Positions 3,268-35,037 of a DNA stretch of 64,000 nt are shown piece after piece. The notes beneath the pieces were generated by a model, which did not search any database, was not told where the DNA came from, and was given only the letters and a program-made list of their open reading frames with translations. The translations under genes and the position numbers were made by a program. Numbering within the stretch: position 1 is the stretch's first letter; each line of letters opens with the position of its first letter. Source of the DNA: Patescibacteria group bacterium (lineage in GTDB: Bacteria; Patescibacteriota; Patescibacteriia; UBA9934); the NCBI GenBank assembly GCA_041666145.1, contig JBAYHK010000001.1, positions 3,810 to 67,809 of the forward strand. Reading direction: 5' to 3'.

Positions 3268-3310
3268 AGTGGAAGAAGAGTAGCAATTTAGCAGTCTCTT
3301 GTGAAGAGTG

Positions 3311-3958
3311 CTAAAGCGTGATGATTTTTGTAGGTTTTAAGGCCTCAACAAATGTCTCTGAGTGCGTCACCACAACAAATCCCGTACCAGATAATCGAAG
3401 CTGTTCAATCGCTCGAAGAATAATCGACTGTGTTGGAACATCAACTCCAGAATCGATCTCATCAAGAAGCGCAATCTTCGGCCGTACCACCAACATTTGA
3501 AACGCCTCCGCTCGCTTCTTCTCTCCCCCGCTCATTTCCGAGTTCAATGCCTTTTGCACAAAACCCTCTGGCAAACATAGAGCCTCCGCTGCTTCTCGAA
3601 TTCGACGCTGCGCTTCTGGAACATCGGTAACTCCACACATTGCCTCAAGTGCTGCTCGAGCCATGAATGAAAGAGACAATCCATCAATCGCTGGAGGCTC
3701 TTGATGCGCAAGAAAAATTCCGGAGCGAGCAAGCTCATGGGTCTTATAGGACCTATAGGACTTATGATCAAATAAAATCTCACCGGAAAGAACGTCGACT
3801 CCTTCCAGGCCCATTATTGCAGCGAGCAAAGAACTCTTTCCCGCCCCATTCTTTCCTTGAATCACTACGCACGCTCCAGCATCAACAGAAAAAGAAAGAT
3901 CTGAAAGAATTCGATGTTCATTTCGAGCAATTGAAAGTTGTTGAATCTCAAGCTTCAT
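3311..3958 (-). CDS. sufC: Fe-S cluster assembly ATPase SufC
   Basis: 215 aa; Walker [13 protein letters not shown] signature LSGGEKKR, Walker B LLDEIDSG; carries the in-frame 9-bp tandem repeat insert (YRSYKTHE). Confidence 0.85.
3742..3767. repeat. 9-bp symmetric tandem repeat (ATAGGACCT-type), copy A1, in frame within sufC
   Basis: cttataggacctataggacttatga read directly from the sequence. Confidence 0.8.
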
Positions 3959-4307
3959 AAGACTTCAGTGCATTCTGCAGGGCAACAAGCGCAGTCGTCA
4001 AACAACGCTCACGAAGCGGAGAGATTGGAACGGAAAGAAGCTCTCGAATGTGATTGCCGCTCATAGGTCCTATAAGACCTATAGGACCTATGACTGAACC
4101 TGCCAGAACCGCAGCGGCTGCACGACTAATCACACAACCAGTTGCTTCGTACTGCATAACCTCAATCTTGCCACCAACAATCTTCAACCACACCTTACAA
4201 AAATCACCGCATGAAGCATTTGTTGCTTCACCGACTGCATTCGCACAGTCAAGCGCACCAACGTGAGTTGTGCTTTTTGCGAGTGCAATGAGATCTGTGT
4301 AATCCAT
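3948..4307 (-). CDS. sufU: SufU/IscU-type Fe-S scaffold protein
   Basis: 119 aa; NifU-N-like motifs NASCGD and TGCVISRAAA; contains in-frame repeat-encoded GPIGLIGPM. Confidence 0.75.
   Translation of the reverse strand: MDYTDLIALAKSTTHVGALDCANAVGEATNASCGDFCKVWLKIVGGKIEVMQYEATGCVISRAAAAVLAGSVIGPIGLIGPMSGNHIRELLSVPISPLRERCLTTALVALQNALKSYEA
4063..4092. repeat. 9-bp symmetric tandem repeat, copy A2, in frame within sufU
   Basis: cataggtcctataagacctataggacctatg. Confidence 0.8.
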
Positions 4308-4335
4308 AGGACGTATACGTCGAATAAGACCTATT
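4305..4335. repeat. Degenerate copy of the 9-bp repeat (A3) at the sufS-stop/sufU-start junction
   Basis: ccataggacgtatacgtcgaataagacctat. Confidence 0.55.
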
Positions 4336-5551
4336 TTAGAAGCTCAAGAACTTCTAAAAGCGCAGAGAGAAACTTCTGTATTTCTTCTTCGGTAGAATAC
4401 GCCGCCAAACTCACTCGAATTGTTCCACCTTCTAGCGCAATCCTTTCAATCAATGGTTGAGCACAGTGATTTCCGGCACGAACACAAATACCGCGCTGAC
4501 CAAGAAGATCAGCAACGTCATGAGGATGAACGCCTTCGACGATGAAAGAAACAATGGCAATGGCATCGGCGGGATCGAAGACGGTGACACCAGGAATCGT
4601 TCGGAGACTGGTGACGAGAGACTGACGCAAGGAAGCTACCCCCTCCGACTCCGTTCCGCCACACATCTTTACCGCTTCAGCAAAACCAATTGCGCCTTCT
4701 ACATTCGGCGATCCACCTTCAAATCGAGCAGGAATCTCTCGCCAAGTTTCACGATCGATAGAAATGGAATCAACCATACCGCCGCCAACAATCATCGGTT
4801 CCATGATTGATGCGAGTCGATTCGATAATGCCATCGCTGCAATCCCAGAAGGTCCATAACACTTATGCGAACCAAACACGATTGCATCGGCGCCAAGTTC
4901 CTTCATCGAGATCGGAATGTGCGGTGCGGCTTGTGCGGCATCGACGATCACGAACGGAAAGGAAAGCTTGTCTACCCCCTCCGACTCCCCCTTGTTAAGG
5001 GGGAGAGTTCGCTGCGCTGCGTCGACAAGTGCTTTTACGGGGACGACAGTTCCAAGAACATTCGAAACAAGAGTCGTTGCAATAATCTTGGTTCGATGAT
5101 TCATCATCGAAATCGTTCCTTCGATATCGAGCATGAAGTCACTGCTCATCGGCATGGTTCGAAGAATCGCACCACGTTCTCGTGCAATGCGTCGCCATGG
5201 CAACAAATTCGCATGATGCTCAAAAGGACTCACCAGAATTTCGTCACCGGGATTGAGGATCGACTGAACGCCAAAAGCAATCGCATTAAGACCCTCCGTG
5301 ACGCTCTTCGTAAAAATCGTGGTTCTCAAATCTGCTTCAATAAATTCGGCAACAGTCTTTCGCGAGTTTTCGTACGCCACCATCGACACTTCAGCTAACG
5401 GATACAGTCCACGACCAATATTCGAACGTCCAGACCGAAGATATGCCGCCATTGCTTCAATCGACGCAGAACAAATCTGCGTGGTTGAAGCGTTGTCGAG
5501 ATAGGCAACGTCAGCATTAAGCGCAGGAAATTGCGAGCGAATATCATTCAT
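4331..5551 (-). CDS. sufS: Cysteine desulfurase SufS (class V aminotransferase)
   Basis: 406 aa; class V aminotransferase fold and PLP-lysine region SHKCYGPSG; start ATG at 5551 (MNDIRSQFP); contains in-frame GC-hairpin insert encoding LPLNKGESEGV. Confidence 0.85.
   Translation of the reverse strand: MNDIRSQFPALNADVAYLDNASTTQICSASIEAMAAYLRSGRSNIGRGLYPLAEVSMVAYENSRKTVAEFIEADLRTTIFTKSVTEGLNAIAFGVQSILNPGDEILVSPFEHHANLLPWRRIARERGAILRTMPMSSDFMLDIEGTISMMNHRTKIIATTLVSNVLGTVVPVKALVDAAQRTLPLNKGESEGVDKLSFPFVIVDAAQAAPHIPISMKELGADAIVFGSHKCYGPSGIAAMALSNRLASIMEPMIVGGGMVDSISIDRETWREIPARFEGGSPNVEGAIGFAEAVKMCGGTESEGVASLRQSLVTSLRTIPGVTVFDPADAIAIVSFIVEGVHPHDVADLLGQRGICVRAGNHCAQPLIERIALEGGTIRVSLAAYSTEEEIQKFLSALLEVLELLK
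4973..5010. repeat. GC-rich palindromic element family B1 (CTCCCCCTTGTTAAGGGGGAG core), in frame in sufS
   Basis: taccccctccgactcccccttgttaagggggagagttc; 7-bp perfect hairpin stem. Confidence 0.85.
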
Positions 5552-6233
5552 AGGTCCTATAGGTCTTATAGGTCTTATAGGACCTATGCGCTACAAGCCC
5601 CCAAATTGGACACAAGAATTGGTCAGCAACCATGCGTCGAGCGATCATGCTGTCAATGCCACGACACGCAAAATACGCAATGATTGCCTTAGAGGGCCGA
5701 GCAACCGCGACTCGATGTTTTGCACGAATAGCATTTGACGCAATATGGAGTTCAGGAATAACACGAATTCGTGACTTGTCTCCAAGAAGCATTCCTCGCA
5801 CTGATGTTTCAACAACACCATCAGCTACCAATGAATCAACAACAACACGCTGACGAATAATCGCATTCGATCGATCTTGCGTAACACATCGGTCGTCAAT
5901 GATGCACGTTGCGCCATCGGCAGAAATATGAACATCGTCATCACATCGAAACGTGACGTTCGGTGCAACTGTACAAGCAGTGAAAAGTTCAACTCGAGCA
6001 CCTGAACCAACAATCTCAACATTTCGAACTATCGAAATATCCGAAATGACTTCGCCAACAAGAACCATCGAGAGTATTGCTCCGGCCTCGACGCGGGCAG
6101 AGATTGAAACGCTTTGCGATATATCGACTTCCACTTTTCGTGAAGACCGTGCTGGAACGCTAATCACAATATCTGCCCCTGAACGAAGCGCTACCTCAGA
6201 CAACGGCTTTTCACGTTCATCAATCATATTCAA
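5544..6233 (-). CDS. sufD: Fe-S cluster assembly protein SufD (short form)
   Basis: 229 aa; beta-helix-like repetitive sequence; positioned between sufB and sufS; C-terminal tail YKTYKTYRTYE is encoded by repeat copy A4. Confidence 0.55.
   Translation of the reverse strand: MNMIDEREKPLSEVALRSGADIVISVPARSSRKVEVDISQSVSISARVEAGAILSMVLVGEVISDISIVRNVEIVGSGARVELFTACTVAPNVTFRCDDDVHISADGATCIIDDRCVTQDRSNAIIRQRVVVDSLVADGVVETSVRGMLLGDKSRIRVIPELHIASNAIRAKHRVAVARPSKAIIAYFACRGIDSMIARRMVADQFLCPIWGLVAHRSYKTYKTYRTYE
5550..5589. repeat. 9-bp symmetric tandem repeat, copy A4 (four to five units) forming the sufD C-terminus, immediately upstream of the sufS start
   Basis: ataggtcctataggtcttataggtcttataggacctatg. 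Confidence 0.85.
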
Positions 6234-7624: not shown

Positions 7625-7807
7625 TCCTAGTCTGAAAATCGAACAAAAACAACGGAAACAAAAAATCGACTACGCTGCGAAAATGAGGATTATTGTTCCA
7701 AAAAATAAAAAAAGAATTGCCAAAATAAGCCCAACTTCAAGCACGGTAACAAATGGAACCTTTTTTGATCGTGCTGATCGACGAACGGTCATATTATGCA
7801 AAGTATA

Positions 7808-8452
7808 TCATCCGTGCCAAAACGTTCTTCGGTGAATCGGCGACAGCCCAATGCGACGAATCGCTTGAACGTGAGCTTTTGTGCCATACCCTTTGTGCGA
7901 CGAAAAATTGTAGCCAGGAATCGTATCATCGAACGCTTCCATGAGCAGATCTCGATATTCTTTTGCCACAATCGATGCGGCAGCAATAGAGAATATCTTC
8001 GCATCACCATCGACGACGGTTTCTTGAGGCGTATCGAGATTTGGAATTCGCTGATTTCCATCAACAAAAACTACCCCCTCCGACTCCCCCTTGTTAAGGG
8101 GGAGAGATCTCACTGCAGCACTCATCGCCCGTAAAGTCGCTTGAAGAATATTAATCTCGTCGATCACCACAGCATCGACCTCAGCAATTCCAACAGCCAA
8201 TGCAACGTCCCGAATCGCTTTCGATGTTTCTTGACGCTGTTTTCGACTAAGCGTTTTGCTGTCACGAATTGGAAATCGCAGTGCAAGATTATAAATCGGC
8301 TCTGGATTGCTCCAGTCAAAAAGCACGGCCCCAGCAACAACTGGCCCAGCCAAACATCCTCGACCAACCTCGTCAACGCCAATTGGATGGCACAAACCAA
8401 CGCCCCATCGACGCAATTCCTCTTTACAATCAAGTGATCCGCGCTTTGTCAT
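7808..8452 (-). CDS. rnhB: Ribonuclease HII
   Basis: 214 aa; catalytic motif GVDEVGRGCLAGPVV; carries in-frame GC-hairpin insert encoding SLPLNKGESEGV. Confidence 0.8.
   Translation of the reverse strand: MTKRGSLDCKEELRRWGVGLCHPIGVDEVGRGCLAGPVVAGAVLFDWSNPEPIYNLALRFPIRDSKTLSRKQRQETSKAIRDVALAVGIAEVDAVVIDEINILQATLRAMSAAVRSLPLNKGESEGVVFVDGNQRIPNLDTPQETVVDGDAKIFSIAAASIVAKEYRDLLMEAFDDTIPGYNFSSHKGYGTKAHVQAIRRIGLSPIHRRTFWHG
8072..8106. repeat. GC-rich palindromic element family B1, in frame in rnhB
   Basis: taccccctccgactcccccttgttaagggggagagatc; near-identical to the sufS copy. Confidence 0.85.
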
Positions 8453-8549: not shown

Positions 8550-8622
8550 CGGGCCGTAGCGCAGTTGGTAGCGCGCCTGGTTTGGGACCAGGAGGTCGCA
8601 GGTTCGAACCCTGTCGGCCCGA
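8550..8622 (+). tRNA. tRNA-Pro (anticodon TGG)
   Basis: Cloverleaf: acceptor cgggccg/cggcccg, anticodon loop ctTGGga, T-loop ggttcgaac; CCA encoded 8623-8625. Confidence 0.85.
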
Positions 8623-8627
8623 CCAAA

Positions 8628-8660
8628 AACGAATCGCAATGCGGTTCGTTTTTGCATCCC
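8628..8660 (+). terminator. Intrinsic terminator after tRNA-Pro
   Basis: aaacgaatcgcaatgcggttcgttttt hairpin plus T-run. Confidence 0.5.
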
Positions 8661-8723
8661 AAACAAGAAGAAAAATCACGAATTATAATTCGTTGATCTG
8701 GCATAATTCATTACAAGTATTGC

Positions 8724-8753
8724 TTGACGCACAACGACATGATGTCATACAAT
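8724..8753 (+). promoter_or_regulatory. Sigma70-like promoter for the tRNA-Ile/tRNA-Phe pair
   Basis: TTGACG, ~18-nt spacer, TACAAT; ~25 nt upstream of tRNA-Ile. Confidence 0.45.
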
Positions 8754-8777
8754 ACCCCCGCTTTCACAAACTATTTC

Positions 8778-8851
<74 letters not shown>

Positions 8852-8855
8852 CCAG

Positions 8856-8927
8856 GCCGAGGTAGCTCAGTGGTAGAGCAGAGGTCTGAAGAACCTCGTG
8901 TCGACAGTTCGATTCTGTCTCTCGGCA
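8856..8927 (+). tRNA. tRNA-Phe (anticodon GAA)
   Basis: D-arm gctcagtggtagagc, anticodon stem gaggt/acctc with loop ctGAAga, T-arm gacagttcgattctgtc; CCA at 8928-8930. Confidence 0.8.
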
Positions 8928-8931
8928 CCAC

Positions 8932-9101: not shown

Positions 9102-10600
<1,499 letters not shown>

Positions 10601-10780
10601 ATAGTTCCCTCGTTGCTCTTGCGAGCTATGAGGGACTCTGTTTAGTGATCGTTCTTGCGAACGATATCGGTGGACGTTGTAATCACGCAATTGTTCATTA
10701 CGTGATGGGCTGGTTGTTGTTCTTCAGTTGTGAAGATACGACGTCCGCCAGGGCGAAAACCCTCAACGAATGTGGCGGTA

Positions 10781-13487: not shown

Positions 13488-14585
13488 CTACACTTTTCTT
13501 GCGCGAATAGCGAGGAACATTGGAATCTCTTTGCGAATGCGATTTTCGGCTCGCGCACGAGGACCAGAAGTGCTTTCTTTATGCGAAATCCATTCTTCCA
13601 TTTCGTCGACAAGGAAACCGGCTTTTGAAAGTGCGGAAACATAAGAAGAAAGCGGACGATGGAATGACATGGTTCGAACGTCTGGAGCGTCGCCAGGATG
13701 CATTTGCATTGGAATCGACTTTTCTTCTAAGTACGAGTCAATACGGCGATACATCATCTTTCTTGAATCTTCGAATCCCCAACTACTCTGACGCGGAACG
13801 CGAAATGCAGGATGGTTCAAAACGATAACGAATGGTGCGTTCTTTTTCAGTAGCTTCGATACTGTTGCGAACACTCCCTCCATGTTTTCAATATTCTGAA
13901 GTGCAAGAACAATCGCGGCACCGTCAAACGTCATGGACGCAATTTCTTTTGTGCCGCGCGATGCGTCTGAAACAAAGAATTCTGCGTTGCGAACATGTTT
14001 CATTTGCGCTTGGCGAACCAAGGTCGGCGAAGCATCGATACCGACCACTCCCCCGCCTTGCTTACTGATTAACTGCGCAAACGAACCTTCGCCACATGCC
14101 ACATCTAAAAACACTTTTCCCGCACCAACACCAAGGAGCTTCAACGCTCCAGGCCAAACCACTTCGCTCTGATACGTTCCTGGCGCGGAAAGATGGGTTC
14201 CATACCACTCCGCAACATTCTCCCAACTTGTTGAAGATGCCGAACCTCGTCGTGGCGAAGCGGCAGCTCGTGGACCGCTGGTGCGTTGATTGAACCTCCC
14301 CCTAGCCCCCTCCTTGGTAAGGAGGGGGGAATCACAACGCGAACCCTCCCCCTTAACAAGGGGGAGTCGGAGGGGGTCGAATCGCTCGTCTCTTCGACGA
14401 CCTTTCATAAATGGCGGCTTCACACTTGGACGCATCGGTCCGTCTGCATGCGAATCTGCTCGAGCATCTCTTGGAGCACGATCGATTCGTTCTGCGCCTT
14501 GCGATCGATTACCACGTTGCGTGCCATATGTTCCTTTGCCGCGGCGAGCGAATGCTGGACCGGGACGTGATTGTGAATGTTGCAT
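13488..14585 (-). CDS. Class I SAM-dependent methyltransferase with Arg-rich N-terminal region of uncertain reality
   Basis: Motif I VFLDVACGEGSFAQ; a composite B2+B1 palindromic element lies in frame near the N-terminus (PLRLPLVKGEGSRCDSPLLTKEGARG); true start uncertain. Confidence 0.6.
   Translation of the reverse strand: MQHSQSRPGPAFARRGKGTYGTQRGNRSQGAERIDRAPRDARADSHADGPMRPSVKPPFMKGRRRDERFDPLRLPLVKGEGSRCDSPLLTKEGARGRFNQRTSGPRAAASPRRGSASSTSWENVAEWYGTHLSAPGTYQSEVVWPGALKLLGVGAGKVFLDVACGEGSFAQLISKQGGGVVGIDASPTLVRQAQMKHVRNAEFFVSDASRGTKEIASMTFDGAAIVLALQNIENMEGVFATVSKLLKKNAPFVIVLNHPAFRVPRQSSWGFEDSRKMMYRRIDSYLEEKSIPMQMHPGDAPDVRTMSFHRPLSSYVSALSKAGFLVDEMEEWISHKESTSGPRARAENRIRKEIPMFLAIRARKV
14295..14380. 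repeat. Composite GC-rich palindromic element (family B2 plus inverted B1), in frame in the methyltransferase ORF
   Basis: cctccccctagccccctccttggtaaggagggggg-aatcacaacgcgaa-ccctcccccttaacaagggggagtcggagggggtcga. Confidence 0.85.
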
Positions 14586-18252: not shown

Positions 18253-19134
18253 GTGATGGGAGAAAAAAGAGAAAAAGATCCGACATGGTTCAGCGTCCGT
18301 GCTGGTGTACTCATTCCGCCCAGTGAATATGAAAGCGTACAACTCGCACTACAGAACTCGCATCCGACATACGTCGAATACAGCGAGCGACTGATATCGA
18401 ACAGGCCGTGTGTGGCCATTGGCGAATATCACAGACTCATCGCCCGCCTCCCCAAGGCCAAGGAGATGCTCTGTGTGATGAACACCAAATCAGGACTGGG
18501 CTACGAAGCAATCAACATCAGCCTTCTCTTCTTCTGGGCTTTCAATGAAGAAAAGGGAGGGAAAGAGCTCATCGTCTGGTGCTACTCGAGCCACTCGGAT
18601 GAAGGGAGACGCTGGATTGCCCTCTCAAGTACCGAATGGCGTACCACGCCCCTCGGACTCCACGCCGTGCGGAGATTCAAGAACGTGGAAGCGGCCAAGC
18701 TCGGATGCCCGGTCGAGAACCTCGTCATCCTTCCGTCCAAGGCCGAGAACGGATGGACCCGGTTCATGGTCCACAGCCCGTTCGACGACGCAAGCCACAT
18801 CGCAACGCTCATGAGAAGTCTGCCTGCCAATGTGCTCGGAATTCCAGAACACACAAGACTCCCAATCTCACTCTGGGACTGCGAAGGTCTCGCTGAAGAC
18901 TTCACACTCGAACGCGTCTGCCCATGCCTCATGGATGAATGGTCTGATCCTGAAGAAGGAAAGACCGACATCCCCATGCGTCAAGCAATCCTTTGGATCG
19001 GTGTAACGAGCCTCGGTGAGTACATCATCGTGACCTGCCAGTGGATGAGTGACACGAACGTGGCCGCCATCTCCTGGAAAATGTTCGCGCACGAAGACGG
19101 CGACCGGATCTTCAAGCAGAAAGCGAAAAGCTAA
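18253..19134 (+). CDS. Cassette-array protein, long form L2
   Basis: 293 aa; LFFWAFNEEKGG...LIVW...EWRTTPLGLHAVRRFKNVEAAKLGCP...GWTRFMVHSPF. Confidence 0.6.
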   Translation: MMGEKREKDPTWFSVRAGVLIPPSEYESVQLALQNSHPTYVEYSERLISNRPCVAIGEYHRLIARLPKAKEMLCVMNTKSGLGYEAINISLLFFWAFNEEKGGKELIVWCYSSHSDEGRRWIALSSTEWRTTPLGLHAVRRFKNVEAAKLGCPVENLVILPSKAENGWTRFMVHSPFDDASHIATLMRSLPANVLGIPEHTRLPISLWDCEGLAEDFTLERVCPCLMDEWSDPEEGKTDIPMRQAILWIGVTSLGEYIIVTCQWMSDTNVAAISWKMFAHEDGDRIFKQKAKS

Positions 19135-22012: not shown

Positions 22013-22077
22013 CGAGACGACTCGAAATGGACAGATTCGTAAATCTCTGCTACTTTTCTTCGTCATCAAGTCACAAA

Positions 22078-22141
22078 AACTCTCTGCGAGGCTTCGAGCC
22101 TATCGAAGTTTCACAGGGCAACGGCAGCAGGCAAGCTGGCG
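22078..22141 (+). promoter_or_regulatory. Conserved cassette leader, type I, copy 6
   Basis: Identical core to copy 4; SD aaggagaacatcATG. Confidence 0.6.
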
Positions 22142-22621
22142 TTGAAACGTACTTTTCACAAGGAGAACATCATGGCCGCCCATCACAGCTTTTTTCTCAA
22201 AGACAAAAGGCTCTGCTACGAAAGAGAAAGTGAGCCAGTTAGCGAGGTGCTCAGAAGGCTTTTAAGCTTCGGAGCCAAAAAAACATTCAGAGATGGAGCA
22301 TGCTTCTGCATTGACGTTAGCAGCTCATCTTCCTCATGCATCTTTTGTACGCCCGAAGATGAGATCGCCACGATCTCCACAGAGGATTCATGGATCTATA
22401 TCTTCTGGGCCTCTGATCCGGAAGGCAGGAATCGGCTCGTGCTCTGGGAAGAAATGGACAATGGGACAGGCTGTCCCGACGAGCAAAAACTACTGGTTGT
22501 GGATGAGGAAAGTGAAGATTGGCAGGCCCTGCCGATCAGCAAGAGGAAGGTCCGAATGTTCAAAAGTCCAGCCGAGGCACAAACGGCGTTTCAAGACGTC
22601 AATCGGAACATCGGGTCTTAG
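22142..22621 (+). CDS. Cassette-array protein, short form S2
   Basis: 159 aa; WIYIFWASDPEGRNRLVLWEEMDNG...LLVVDEESEDWQALPISKRKVRMFKSPAEAQTAFQDVNRNIG. Confidence 0.6.
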   Translation: MKRTFHKENIMAAHHSFFLKDKRLCYERESEPVSEVLRRLLSFGAKKTFRDGACFCIDVSSSSSSCIFCTPEDEIATISTEDSWIYIFWASDPEGRNRLVLWEEMDNGTGCPDEQKLLVVDEESEDWQALPISKRKVRMFKSPAEAQTAFQDVNRNIGS

Positions 22622-22729
22622 ACCGCCCCTTCACGACGACGGCTCCCCCACGCGGGTGCCGTCGTTTTGCTTTTCGAATGGACAAATCCTCTCATATCTG
22701 CTACTTTTCTTCGTCATCAAGTCACAAAA

Positions 22730-22823
22730 ACTCTCTGCGAGGCTTCGAGCCTATCGAAGTTTCACAGGGCAACGGCAGCAGGCAAGCTGGCGTTGAAACA
22801 TCCATTTTTTTCAAGGAGACATC
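22730..22823 (+). promoter_or_regulatory. Conserved cassette leader, type I, copy 7
   Basis: Identical core to copies 4 and 6. Confidence 0.6.
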
Positions 22824-23273
22824 ATGGGCGCTCATCGACGCTTTTATCTCAAAAACGGAGAGCTCTGCTATGGAAAAGAGGGGGAATCTGTCAGCGAGGC
22901 GCTCGAAAACCTTCCAAAATTCAGAGCCAAAGAAACACTCAGAGATGAAGCATGCGTCTGCATTGACGTCAGCAGATCACCTTCCTCATGCATCTTTCGT
23001 GTACCCGGAGACGAGATCGCCAAGATCTCCACAAAGGATTCGCTAATCTATGTCTTCTGGGCCTCAAATCCGGAAGGAAGGGATCGGCTCGTACTCTGGG
23101 AAGAGATGGACGACGGTATGAGCCTTCCCGACGAGCAGAAACTCCTGGTTGTAGATGAGGAAAGTGAAGCTTGGCAGGTTATGCCAATCAGCAACAGGAA
23201 GGTTCGGATGTTCGAAAGTTCGGTCAAGGCGCGAACGGCGCTTCAAAACATCAGCCAGGACATCAGATCCTAG
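22824..23273 (+). CDS. Cassette-array protein, short form S3
   Basis: 149 aa; ~70% identical to S2. Confidence 0.6.
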   Translation: MGAHRRFYLKNGELCYGKEGESVSEALENLPKFRAKETLRDEACVCIDVSRSPSSCIFRVPGDEIAKISTKDSLIYVFWASNPEGRDRLVLWEEMDDGMSLPDEQKLLVVDEESEAWQVMPISNRKVRMFESSVKARTALQNISQDIRS

Positions 23274-23367
23274 ACCGCCCCTTCACGACGACGGCTCCCC
23301 ACGCGGTGCCGTCGTTTTGCTTTTCAATAGACAAAACCTCATATTTCTGCTATTCTTCTCTGTTCCA

Positions 23368-33495: not shown

Positions 33496-35037
33496 TCACA
33501 TCCATCGCTTCTCCTGATTAATCCATTCAAGAATCTCTTCATTCGACTTCCCTTCATCATCGCGTAACCTATCTGCTTCGCGAATAAGCTCCCCCATCTT
33601 TACGCCAGGTTCAATGCCAAGTGCAACAAGCTCCTCTCCAGTAATCGCATGTTGCGCAGGACCAGTGAGCACGTCAAGCTTCGATGCTCGGTCGAGTAAC
33701 CATGATCGCTCCGGAAACTCACGTGCTTCTCCATGACGCCATCCAACTTTACGATTTGAAACATCGGAGCTTGACTGAACAAACTGACCGCGACCGAAGT
33801 AATCCGCTTCTGCTAAAAGAAGGAGTTCTGAAATTGTCGCTGGAGATATCGACGCAGCAAGTCGACGAATCGCACCGTCGGTAATAATCAGACCGGGTTT
33901 TTGGCTATCAAGGTAGAGCACGGTTGGCGCCATGTGATGCTTCACCATGCCAACAATCTTTTCAACCATGGGATGCGCAACACCAATGCGCGCCAAGAAC
34001 GAACGTGCTGGCGCCTCACCGGCCGGCTCGTGACCAATCGCACGAATTTTTCCATCAATCTCTTCAGTAACAATCGACTTTCCAAAGTCATGGCACAACG
34101 CCACAAGCATCATCATGAACGCAGTTTCTTCGTCACAATTCTCCCGACGAATAATCGCCGCCTCTTCGTCAACAACCATAAGCGTATGAATCCATACGTC
34201 ACCCTCTGGATGCCACTCTGGATTCTGCGGTGTTAACTTTAGCGGCGGCAATTCTGGAAACATCGCATCAAAAACTCCCAAATCGAATCCCAATTGCAGT
34301 CCTATCGACGGCTTTTCCGCAAGAACCAAAAGCTTTCGCCACTCATCTCGTAATCTCTCTTGCGACAGCTCACGCAAACTCGAAACCGACCTTCGCATCA
34401 CATCCATGGATTCCACATCTGGCGTCAAATCAAATCTCGCAACAAATTGCATGGCCCGAAGCACACGAAGCGGATCGTCCCCGAAAAGTTTTGCATCCAC
34501 TACCCGCAAAATCTTCTGTTCAAGATCGACAGCGCCATGAAATGGATCGATAACTTCTTCAGTCAACGGATCCATCATGATGGCGTTCACTGTGAAATCC
34601 CTTCGGCGCGCAGCGTTTTCTGGCGTCATGGTCGGGTCGACATGCACCGCAAAACCTTTGTGCCCTGCATCGACTTTCGAATCTGAACGCGGAATGCCAA
34701 GATCGATCACAAGACCTCCCCCTAACCCCCTCCTTGATAAGGAGGGGGAATTCTCATCCGAACGCGAACCCTCCCCCTTAACAAGGGGGAGTTGGAGGGG
34801 GTCGACTCGCAACTTCAAAATCCCAAATGCCTTACCCGCATCAATAACCTCGCCGAATGTCGATGCGATCTCATGGAGCTTCTCCGGCTCAACTCCATAC
34901 ACTTCAATGTCAAAATCCTTCGGAACACTATCGCTCAACACATCACGAACGCATCCCCCGACCAATAAAGCTCGACCGCCAGCAGACTGGATCGACCGCG
35001 CAAGTTCGAGAATGATGTTTGGAAGAGAATATTTCAT
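33496..35037 (-). CDS. cca: CCA tRNA nucleotidyltransferase / polyA polymerase family protein with HD domain
   Basis: Pol-beta NTase motif LLVGGCVRDVLSDSVPKDFDIEV; HD-region LCHDFGK; a composite B2+B1 element inserted in frame (PLQLPLVKGEGSRSDENSPSLSRRGLGGG). Confidence 0.75.
   Translation of the reverse strand: MKYSLPNIILELARSIQSAGGRALLVGGCVRDVLSDSVPKDFDIEVYGVEPEKLHEIASTFGEVIDAGKAFGILKLRVDPLQLPLVKGEGSRSDENSPSLSRRGLGGGLVIDLGIPRSDSKVDAGHKGFAVHVDPTMTPENAARRRDFTVNAIMMDPLTEEVIDPFHGAVDLEQKILRVVDAKLFGDDPLRVLRAMQFVARFDLTPDVESMDVMRRSVSSLRELSQERLRDEWRKLLVLAEKPSIGLQLGFDLGVFDAMFPELPPLKLTPQNPEWHPEGDVWIHTLMVVDEEAAIIRRENCDEETAFMMMLVALCHDFGKSIVTEEIDGKIRAIGHEPAGEAPARSFLARIGVAHPMVEKIVGMVKHHMAPTVLYLDSQKPGLIITDGAIRRLAASISPATISELLLLAEADYFGRGQFVQSSSDVSNRKVGWRHGEAREFPERSWLLDRASKLDVLTGPAQHAITGEELVALGIEPGVKMGELIREADRLRDDEGKSNEEILEWINQEKRWM
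34715..34806. repeat. Composite GC-rich palindromic element (B2 plus inverted B1), in frame in cca
   Basis: cctccccctaaccccctccttgataaggaggggg-aattctcatccgaacgcgaa-ccctcccccttaacaagggggagttggagggggtcga; same architecture as 14295-14380. Confidence 0.85.

Follow-up and report, generated by a model that had tools for sequence, protein, structure and literature searches.

The 64,000-nucleotide stretch of DNA analyzed here (hereafter, the window), from a Patescibacteria group bacterium (GenBank assembly GCA_041666145.1, contig JBAYHK010000001.1, positions 3,810 to 67,809 of the forward strand), contains within its suf operon four arrays of a 9-bp palindrome, TAGG(A/T)CCTA, arranged head-to-tail with 3–4 units per array, and a fifth array of the same unit is located inside copA, ~1.6 kb before window position 1. 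These loci are copies of one widespread hairpin-forming repeat of environmental bacteria, and this (TAGGWCCTA)n family is physically tied to four-helix-bundle suffix genes of the S23p/Avd superfamily. This membership in a family linked to genes of the intervening sequence (IVS) type is the point that the original prediction, made from the window sequence alone, missed. We assign a probability of about 0.5 to the explanation that the arrays are an orphan, IVS-like selfish hairpin repeat that spreads locally by templated copying. Most likely, they have no role in the control of Fe-S metabolism, and their effects, namely stable mRNA or DNA hairpins, runs of rare codons, and Gly/Pro-rich or Tyr-rich loops, would be by-products.

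Palindrome arrays in the suf genes and copA

The genes clpP, sufC, sufU, sufS, sufD, sufB and rnhB form a run on the minus strand and were identified by Pfam searches, which bear out the labels originally given to sufC, sufU, sufS and sufD. The best SufB relatives are 73–77% identical, and the host is a bacterium of the candidate phyla radiation (CPR) near Candidatus Uhrbacteria. The sufC gene (3311–3958, minus strand), which encodes an ABC ATPase (Pfam ABC_tran, with SufC proteins as the best solved matches), carries one internal array of three units at 3737..3766 (Tandem Repeats Finder, period 9, 3745–3765) encoding the peptide KSYRSYKTH, residues 66–74, between the Walker A motif and the Q-loop. 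The sufU gene (3948–4307, minus strand), for a NifU_N scaffold protein with 70 homologues, likewise contains an internal array of three units at 4061..4093 (period 9, 4069–4091); the encoded peptide IGPIGLIGPM, residues 73–82, belongs to a segment that joins helices 59–71 and 84–91 in a confident structure model (predicted local distance difference test score, pLDDT, 93.6). The start of sufU adjoins another array, and the cysteine desulfurase gene sufS (4331–5551, minus strand, Pfam Aminotran_5) has arrays at both ends.

The array in the sufS/sufU spacer (4305..4335) reads ATAGGTCTT ATTCGACGT ATACGTCCT ATG on the mRNA strand, with the sufS stop codon TAG inside the first unit. An array is indeed present at this locus, as predicted, but its three units are degenerate, and the spacer holds a different, 12-bp palindrome, GACGTATACGTC. 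At the other end of sufS, four units (5549..5588; period 9, 5550–5587) read CAT AGG TCC TAT AAG ACC TAT AAG ACC TAT AGG ACC TAT G on the mRNA strand and encode a C-terminal tail, HRSYKTYKTYRTY, of SufD (5544–6233, minus strand, Pfam SUFBD_core) that is missing in its relatives; the sufS AUG follows directly on the 3' side. The repeat had been credited with both the tail and the stop codon of sufD; it supplies the tail, but the stop codon TGA belongs to the ATGA in which sufD and the start of sufS overlap, immediately after the repeat. The copA array consists of three units, ATAGGTCCTATTGGTCCTATAGGACCTATA, read as IGPIGPIGPI (15926–15952 of L081, an overlapping contig described below). As a side observation, copA itself (15602–17752 of L081) occurs in the window lineage and the relative L341 but is missing between a dsbD/cupredoxin gene and an RRM gene in L083, L084, L340 and L342, a gain or loss beside the array cluster.

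The four suf arrays are supported by counts, Tandem Repeats Finder and an inverted-repeat search, and the encoded peptides are those originally described; the arrays have 3, 3, 3 (degenerate) and 4 units rather than 2–5. The sequence ATAGGNCCT occurs 10 times in the window (both strands), always within 3746–5587, with 0.48 occurrences expected and none of 100 shuffles reaching 10. With up to two mismatches, TATAGGACCTAT yields 22 matches in the window, 21 of them in 3737–5588, compared to the expectation of 0.96. Confinement of the repeat to the suf operon holds inside the window, but not beyond it, given the copA array. The five arrays span 7.2 kb in total, and the other ~70 kb of readable genome (78 kb scanned, comprising the window, L081 and L345) contain neither an array nor a single unit.

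Two other assemblies overlap the arrays: L081, a MEGAHIT contig from the European Nucleotide Archive (ENA) that reaches 6 kb beyond window position 1, and L082, a contig from the Joint Genome Institute (JGI). Over 14.3 kb, L081 matches the window at 99.993% identity, and L082 does so at 99.87% over 9.8 kb; neither alignment has a gap, and the arrays are identical. The possibility of an assembly or chimera artefact, for which no supporting point was found, is effectively eliminated by these identical, gap-free arrays in ENA and JGI assemblies of other samples and by degenerate versions of the arrays at the same codons in more than eight related genomes.

The arrays are polar. All unit centres in the window arrays are A or T, with T-centred units on the 5' side and A-centred units on the 3' side; the order on the mRNA strand is TTA in sufU, sufC and copA, and TAAA at the sufD/sufS junction. 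Given this order, the whole array becomes a 27–38-bp palindrome that is able to fold as a hairpin. The inverted-repeat search detects perfect 14-nt arms in the sufU array (4061–4074/4080–4093) and 20-nt, 85% complementary arms in the sufD/sufS array (5549–5568/5569–5588). The plus strand of the sufU array, 4063–4091, is ATAGGTCCTATAAGACCTATAGGACCTAT and would translate to RSY-KTY-RTY; the sufD/sufS array is the sufU array inverted, with one unit doubled, at a distance of 1.5 kb, and either of the two might have served as a template for the other. Two reading frames are used, namely YRS/YKT in sufC and sufD, and IGP/IGL in sufU and copA, and the codons are those that the genome uses least: ATA accounts for 6% of Ile codons, AGG for 5% of Arg, TCC for 8% of Ser and CCT for 16% of Pro.

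Predicted RNA hairpins are strongest for the copA (−25.1 kcal/mol, z −5.3), sufU (−22.6 kcal/mol, z −4.4) and sufD/sufS (−19.7 kcal/mol, z −3.2) arrays; the sufC array folds weakly (−9.1 kcal/mol, z −0.7) and the fold of the sufS/sufU array is not significant (−6.7 kcal/mol, z −0.3). Terminal complementary repeats that form a stem, as in IVS elements, are found in three arrays and span 13–14 bp. At the sufD/sufS junction, the sufS AUG forms part of a 13-bp stem and, with the start codon so buried, translation of sufS would have to be coupled to that of sufD. Three other readings of the unit were dropped: a Shine-Dalgarno sequence (the spacing to the ATG is 3 nt), a CsrA site (the T-centred units lack GGA), and a promoter −10 box (the 9-bp period is incompatible with the −35/−10 spacing).

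The repeat family and the four-helix-bundle suffix genes

A metagenome scan for two adjacent units, with any base allowed at the unit centre, returned at least 120 contigs carrying arrays, with GC contents of 0.21–0.71. Nearly all the listed arrays have 3–8 units, and ~20% of the listed loci have more than one array within a few kb. The majority (57 of 90) lie outside long open reading frames (ORFs), usually occupying the short spacers that separate co-directional genes and in many cases located immediately 5' of a ribosome-binding site and ATG. Although the search admitted any nucleotide, the centre is A or T in 89% of the units in the position weight matrix of the family. Given the two forms of the unit (TAGGTCCTA and TAGGACCTA), arrays can be arranged T..A, A..T or as direct repeats; among the listed arrays, 49 are T..A, 12 are A..T and 44 are uniform (p = 2e-6). 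The most common 3- and 4-unit patterns, TTA and TAAA, are those of the window arrays, whereas control 9-mer sets are dominated by plain direct arrays with uniform centres.

No family is enriched among the 82 genes directly 3' of the metagenome arrays, which are unrelated housekeeping genes; the neighbours include recR, pyk, ruvB, atp, nonribosomal peptide synthetase (NRPS) genes and one OmpA-like gene. Global enrichment in viral contigs was considered and rejected as weak (55 loci vs 39 and 39 for two composition-matched palindromic 9-mers); the viral arrays are uniform direct repeats or collagen-like GPI/GPT genes, a different phenomenon. In Rfam, no match was obtained at the gathering threshold, nor at E<=1, and literature searches by sequence or peptide found no description of a repeat family with this fixed unit, A/T centre and polarity. 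On three contigs (L126, L131 and L162), homologous NRPS-like adenylation-domain genes carry an array directly 5' of the A7 motif YKTGDL, the DNA of which (TACAAGACC) resembles one unit, providing another case of an array beside a seed within a coding region.

Among the 131 ORFs within 2.5 kb of the metagenome arrays, the most frequent Pfam family is 23S_rRNA_IVP. The matching ORFs encode “four helix bundle suffix” proteins, TIGR04258 with a TIGR02436 N-terminus. In L111, L117, L172 and L193, the array is in frame at one fixed position of the TIGR04258 gene; L199 is a truncated copy of the gene that begins at the array, and L190 and L123 have arrays on both flanks of the gene. The family is large, with at least 8000 homologue matches, the best 120 of which (P0087–P0206) show 81–91% identity; almost all of these best 120 contain the motif [ND]RSY[KRMT]TY[KR]TY, one lacking a readable segment. 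The modal peptide is NRSYKTYRTY, and RSY-KTY-RTY, as DNA, is exactly the 27-mer of the window sufU array; doubling one unit gives the sufD/sufS array. The lengths of the family proteins vary in steps of ~3 residues, from 182 to 195 aa. With their in-frame 27-bp palindromic array and flanking short tandem repeats, these genes resemble a mobile cassette. Heptamer arrays likewise border the canonical IVP genes of L089, L021 and L033; in L121, the gene has other 9-mers at its flanks.

The gene sequence adjoins 10 of 137 metagenome arrays, the others being orphans. The window arrays are also orphans, given that no four-helix-bundle gene is seen in the 78 kb. A RAYT (REP-associated tyrosine transposase, of the Y1 type; REP, repetitive extragenic palindrome) was found neither in the window nor among the top 25 families listed per scan of 213 neighbouring ORFs. 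In CPR bacteria, rRNA insertions can likewise contain ORFs of the S23p type. The S23p/IVS-protein/Avd superfamily to which the repeat family is tied has been enigmatic in function and spread since the 1990s, and the arrays provide a testable handle, namely the action of the four-helix-bundle protein or of RNase III on them.

Orthologous sites and the origin of the arrays

The gene order rnhB-sufBDSUC-clpP is conserved in relatives, which allows comparison of the array sites. A strict array pattern has no match in 80 suf loci of species-representative genomes; degenerate versions emerged after codon-level alignment. In 12 operons compared at the codon level, all states from array-free to perfect array are represented. 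The comparison of related suf operons proposed in the original prediction shows that the arrays are partly present in relatives, but that close relatives with the same operon lack them: arrays are absent from L002, L059, L346 and L347 and partly absent from L003, L340 and L342.

SufC aligns without gaps to its relatives and to SufC of T. thermophilus (2d2e); SufU aligns without gaps to its relatives and without net gaps to solved NifU/IscU/SufU proteins; and CopA aligns without gaps to its L341 orthologue across the array (IGPIGPIGPI vs MGSSISFAPD). The arrays in these three genes therefore replace ~27 bp of existing sequence, and array-less relatives have ordinary sequence of equal length at the same sites. 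The junction arrays, found only in the window lineage, are additions: the sufD/sufS array amounts to ~32–36 extra nt relative to L003, L001, L084, L340 and L342, all with tight ATGA overlaps, and the sufS/sufU array is added sequence where the relatives have no spacer. A transposon target-site duplication with a 9-bp stagger was rejected for the three gap-free arrays. The claim that the repeat originated at the DNA level rather than by selection on the protein is upheld by the use of two frames, by the rarity of the codons and by the unrelated sequence of the same length at orthologous codons in relatives.

Array-less lineages of both clades share the SufC sequence ES[LV][IL]G[KA]KTYE; the native KTYE codons (AAGACGTATGAG), present in array-less relatives, already resemble one unit and could therefore act as a seed. 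The flanks of the sufC block are 78–82% identical between L084 and L340, compared to 52% for the block itself; conversely, array blocks of distant lineages or clades are 78–89% identical with flanks at 56–72%. The SufU state IGPIGxIGxM is patchy among the 70 homologues, even in pairs that are 86–92% identical outside the block. The sufU block of the window scores 28/31 for self-complementarity, vs 8–16/31 in array-less relatives. Single units change as blocks, e.g., the third sufU unit is GTGCGTTCG in L059 and ATAGGACTT in L341. Length-neutral multinucleotide changes that raise arm complementarity, which are expected from template switching, are thus observed. A graded series of SufU peptides (IGAIDSVRSM ... 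IGPIGRIGPM) was considered as a DNA series and rejected, given that the IGP of L346/L347 uses GGC CCG codons.

These data are best compatible with a scenario of templated copying in the DNA, in which replication template switching or short-patch conversion between neighbouring sequences with a partial match gave rise to the arrays. At the two cistron junctions, such copying would have added sequence; in SufU, SufC and CopA, it would have overwritten ~27 bp of a tolerant loop, starting from native unit-like seeds and retaining the length. On this account, essential and length-constrained proteins such as SufC, SufU and CopA can have ~9 loop residues replaced by a translated selfish DNA repeat, and the replacement would be repeated and parallel in related lineages, a pattern normally taken for positive selection.

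Among the known systems, the closest likeness is to the IVS of 23S rRNA with the S23p/23S_rRNA_IVP ORF (Leptospira, Coxiella, Brucella), which are also stem-loops bounded by tandem and inverted repeats, linked to an S23p/Avd-like four-helix-bundle gene, with ORF-less versions. In Coxiella, the IVS, a selfish stem-loop, contains an S23p ORF and tandem heptamers that vary in number between strains, and its 28-bp terminal stem is cut by RNase III. Unlike these, the present family has a 9-bp palindromic unit and a gene of the ‘suffix’ subfamily (TIGR04258), and resides in mRNA spacers and protein-coding frames rather than rRNA helices, with no ORF beside the window arrays. The REP and REPIN elements and their RAYT genes are similar in that short hairpin palindromes occupy operon spacers in an inverted arrangement of fixed polarity and the associated gene is flanked by the repeat. 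Their hallmark of being extragenic and present in many copies per genome is not seen here, with 3 of 5 arrays intragenic and 5 arrays in 78 kb; furthermore, the unit is far shorter and tandem, and the same sequence recurs across GC contents, whereas REPs are species-specific. Rickettsia palindromic elements (RPEs), like the arrays, are in-frame palindromes tolerated at surface loops in housekeeping genes of a small genome, but RPEs are insertions of 100–150 bp, whereas three of the arrays are length-neutral replacements of 27–30 bp; extra residues, as in RPE insertions, are seen in the SufD tail only, SufC, SufU and CopA being gap-free.

The MetJ met-boxes and omega heptads similarly consist of 2–5 or more contiguous near-palindromic short units (omega favours heptads in direct or convergent orientation over divergent ones), but these arrays are located in promoters, with a defined regulon and a known cognate protein, none of which applies to the window arrays. 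Diversity-generating retroelements combine an Avd-type four-helix-bundle protein with templated, length-neutral rewriting of a short coding stretch; here, no reverse transcriptase, template/variable repeat pair or adenine-specific mutagenesis was seen, and this resemblance might serve as a lead only. Finally, template switching in inverted repeats is known to produce length-neutral multinucleotide changes, homogenisation of arms and parallel evolution without selection (PMC8604942), and palindrome-perfecting replacements of this kind also occur in coding DNA, where they can be mistaken for selection (PMC8604942, PMC8794818). Judging by the sequence comparisons, the blockwise, length-neutral changes at the array sites appear to be this described signature of template switching between inverted repeats. 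Template switching, however, copies any nearby sequence and does not predict a fixed polar 9-mer in unrelated genomes.

Several points weigh against the selfish repeat with local templated copying. The same 9-mer, A/T centre and T-then-A polarity across 21–71% GC is left unexplained by generic template switching. No S23p, TIGR02436 or TIGR04258 gene was detected by hidden Markov model and Pfam searches in the window, L081, L343, L344 or L345, and no enzyme able to drive the spread of the arrays was found in the 78 kb of readable genome. Two of the five arrays, those in sufC and at the sufS/sufU junction, have no significant fold. The array copy number does not vary between the window and the two other assemblies, which is a weak comparison given that the three genomes come from one population; the variation in repeat number that the original prediction had suggested looking for is accordingly not seen. 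L084 and L340 retain the SufU peptide IGPIxxIGxM while the codons drift (5 synonymous vs 1 non-synonymous change), which hints at retention at the protein level. The stronger conservation of array blocks relative to their flanks could equally reflect purifying selection on a functional site, and the direction of gain and loss is inferred from a comparison of ~12 loci. Finally, the location of all five arrays in metal-homeostasis genes (suf and copA) may be no coincidence.

The fixed 9-mer, the A/T centre, the polarity across genomes and the peptide retention in L084 and L340 leave room for an active, sequence-specific four-helix-bundle system. It is conceivable, albeit improbable, that the arrays and the four-helix-bundle suffix genes constitute an undescribed mobile or ‘homing’ system that inserts between genes and overwrites coding DNA in place. 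Such a system would amount to sequence-directed, length-neutral protein rewriting without a reverse transcriptase, in the essential suf genes and copA of a CPR bacterium.

Two kinds of selected function appear somewhat less probable still. The arrays might be RNA hairpins that tune the suf and copA mRNAs through sufS-sufD coupling, processing or protection of the RNase III type, or rare-codon pausing, and in this way set subunit ratios. In accord with this possibility, three arrays fold far better than shuffled sequences, with the buried sufS AUG; metagenome arrays typically occupy short co-directional spacers, often upstream of a ribosome-binding site; related IVS stems are genuine RNase III substrates; and the array blocks of distant lineages are better conserved than the flanks. 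However, besides the two arrays that lack a significant fold, cleavage within sufU, sufC or copA would destroy the message, a stem of 13–14 bp is short by the standards of RNase III, the same operon exists without arrays in close relatives, hairpin energy does not explain the T-then-A polarity, and there is no matching Rfam family.

With about the same, low likelihood, the arrays could be selected sites for a sequence-specific protein, either a ribbon-helix-helix or other dimer or the four-helix-bundle protein itself, functioning as a roadblock, in chromosome organisation or in cassette recombination. The A/T centre (89%) and the polarity (49 vs 12) point to macromolecular recognition, the unit is constant over a wide GC range, arrays cluster locally (~20% of loci with two or more), the linked genes are flanked by the repeat in the manner of RAYT genes and REPs, and the truncated L199 gene, which begins at an array, suggests recombination there. 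Yet the 78 kb contain no gene for a candidate protein, S23p-like genes are the only enriched neighbouring family, the arrays are embedded in coding DNA and remote from promoters, and their presence is patchy among close relatives. Sequence-specific DNA binding is not known for Avd/S23p proteins.

Ordinary slippage minisatellites at four independent sites are a far weaker explanation. The tandem structure with period 9, the doubled KTY unit of the sufD/sufS array, which looks like one slippage step, and the ~3-residue length steps of the family genes would fit slippage. The same unit at five loci, however, cannot be independent; three arrays arose without a change of length, and the gap-free alignments largely refute this explanation; the arrays are polar palindromes, whereas control slippage arrays have uniform centres; and the assemblies show no difference in copy number. 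The micro-satellite-like hotspot originally envisaged thus survives in the tandem arrangement, but not in the length-neutral origin of 3 of the 5 arrays or in the T-then-A polarity, which is foreign to plain slippage arrays.

It is just as doubtful that a peptide motif, (IGP)n or SYxTY, was selected and the DNA similarity is secondary. Numerous SufU lineages retain IGPIGxIGxM, with synonymous codon drift in some of them, and RSYxTYxTY is strongly conserved in the four-helix-bundle family, but the same DNA in two frames yields unrelated peptides, the rarest codons are used, arrays also occur in non-coding spacers, and array-less orthologues apparently function. For genome annotation, the warning is that peptides such as YRSYKTY and IGPIGPIGP, and odd C-terminal tails, can stem from DNA-level repeats.

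An operator for an Fe-S-responsive or copper-responsive regulator (IscR/SufR/CsoR-like) embedded in coding DNA, in line with the Fe-S regulator operator raised in the original prediction, is the least plausible of these biological alternatives and is not supported by the present analysis, even though suf genes and copA account for all five arrays over a span of 7.2 kb. No array is found near the suf promoter region around position 7800, where the only good promoter-like site (7793–7820) lies 5' of a small ORF before sufB; no IscR/SufR/CsoR-like regulator is encoded in the window; copA carries an array, relatives with the same operon lack them, and such arrays are also found on at least 120 unrelated contigs, identical ones adjoining recR, pyk, ruvB, atp, NRPS and other genes. 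Compared by eye with the consensus of the IscR, SufR, CsoR and CopY boxes, the unit shows no resemblance; only its TAGGT...ACCTA ends recall the DtxR/IdeR box.

Other features of the window

The small ORF between rnhB and sufB (7670–7792, minus strand; MTVRRSARSKKVPFVTVLEVGLILAILFLFFGTIILIFAA) encodes a conserved single-transmembrane protein of 37–41 residues that is also present in L084, L340, L341 and L342; the promoter-like sequence just 5' of it is TTGGCA-16-CATAAT (7820–7793). At the other end of the operon, a CIRCE element, the HrcA operator, is located between sufC and clpP (3288–3314; TTAGCACTC-N9-GAGTGCTAA, one mismatch) and is retained 5' of clpP in relatives.

The 16S rRNA gene (9104–10602, minus strand) has no 23S gene beside it; three tRNA genes adjoin it (8550–8930, plus strand). 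All 13 mismatches between the window and the JGI contig fall at 9517–9793 of the 16S gene, at the end of that contig. Among unannotated genes, a ~670-bp tandem duplication (22043–23359) with 84% identity gives rise to two paralogous 149-residue ORFs without a Pfam match.

A second repeat family, of ~36 bp, ACCCCCTCCGACTCCCCCTTGTTAAGGGGGAG(A/G)G, with a CCCCCTT/AAGGGGG hairpin, is represented at 4973–5010, 8072–8108, 14340–14378 and 34765–34803, with half copies at 4637–4655 and 18646–18664. It is always in frame in long ORFs (sufS, rnhB, a 365-aa ORF and the poly(A)/CCA polymerase gene), where it encodes LPLNKGESEGV or PLRLPLVKGEG. The element in SufS, a 15-residue insertion relative to L003 and L001, is unrelated to the 9-bp arrays, and the family looks like an in-frame insertion of the RPE type.

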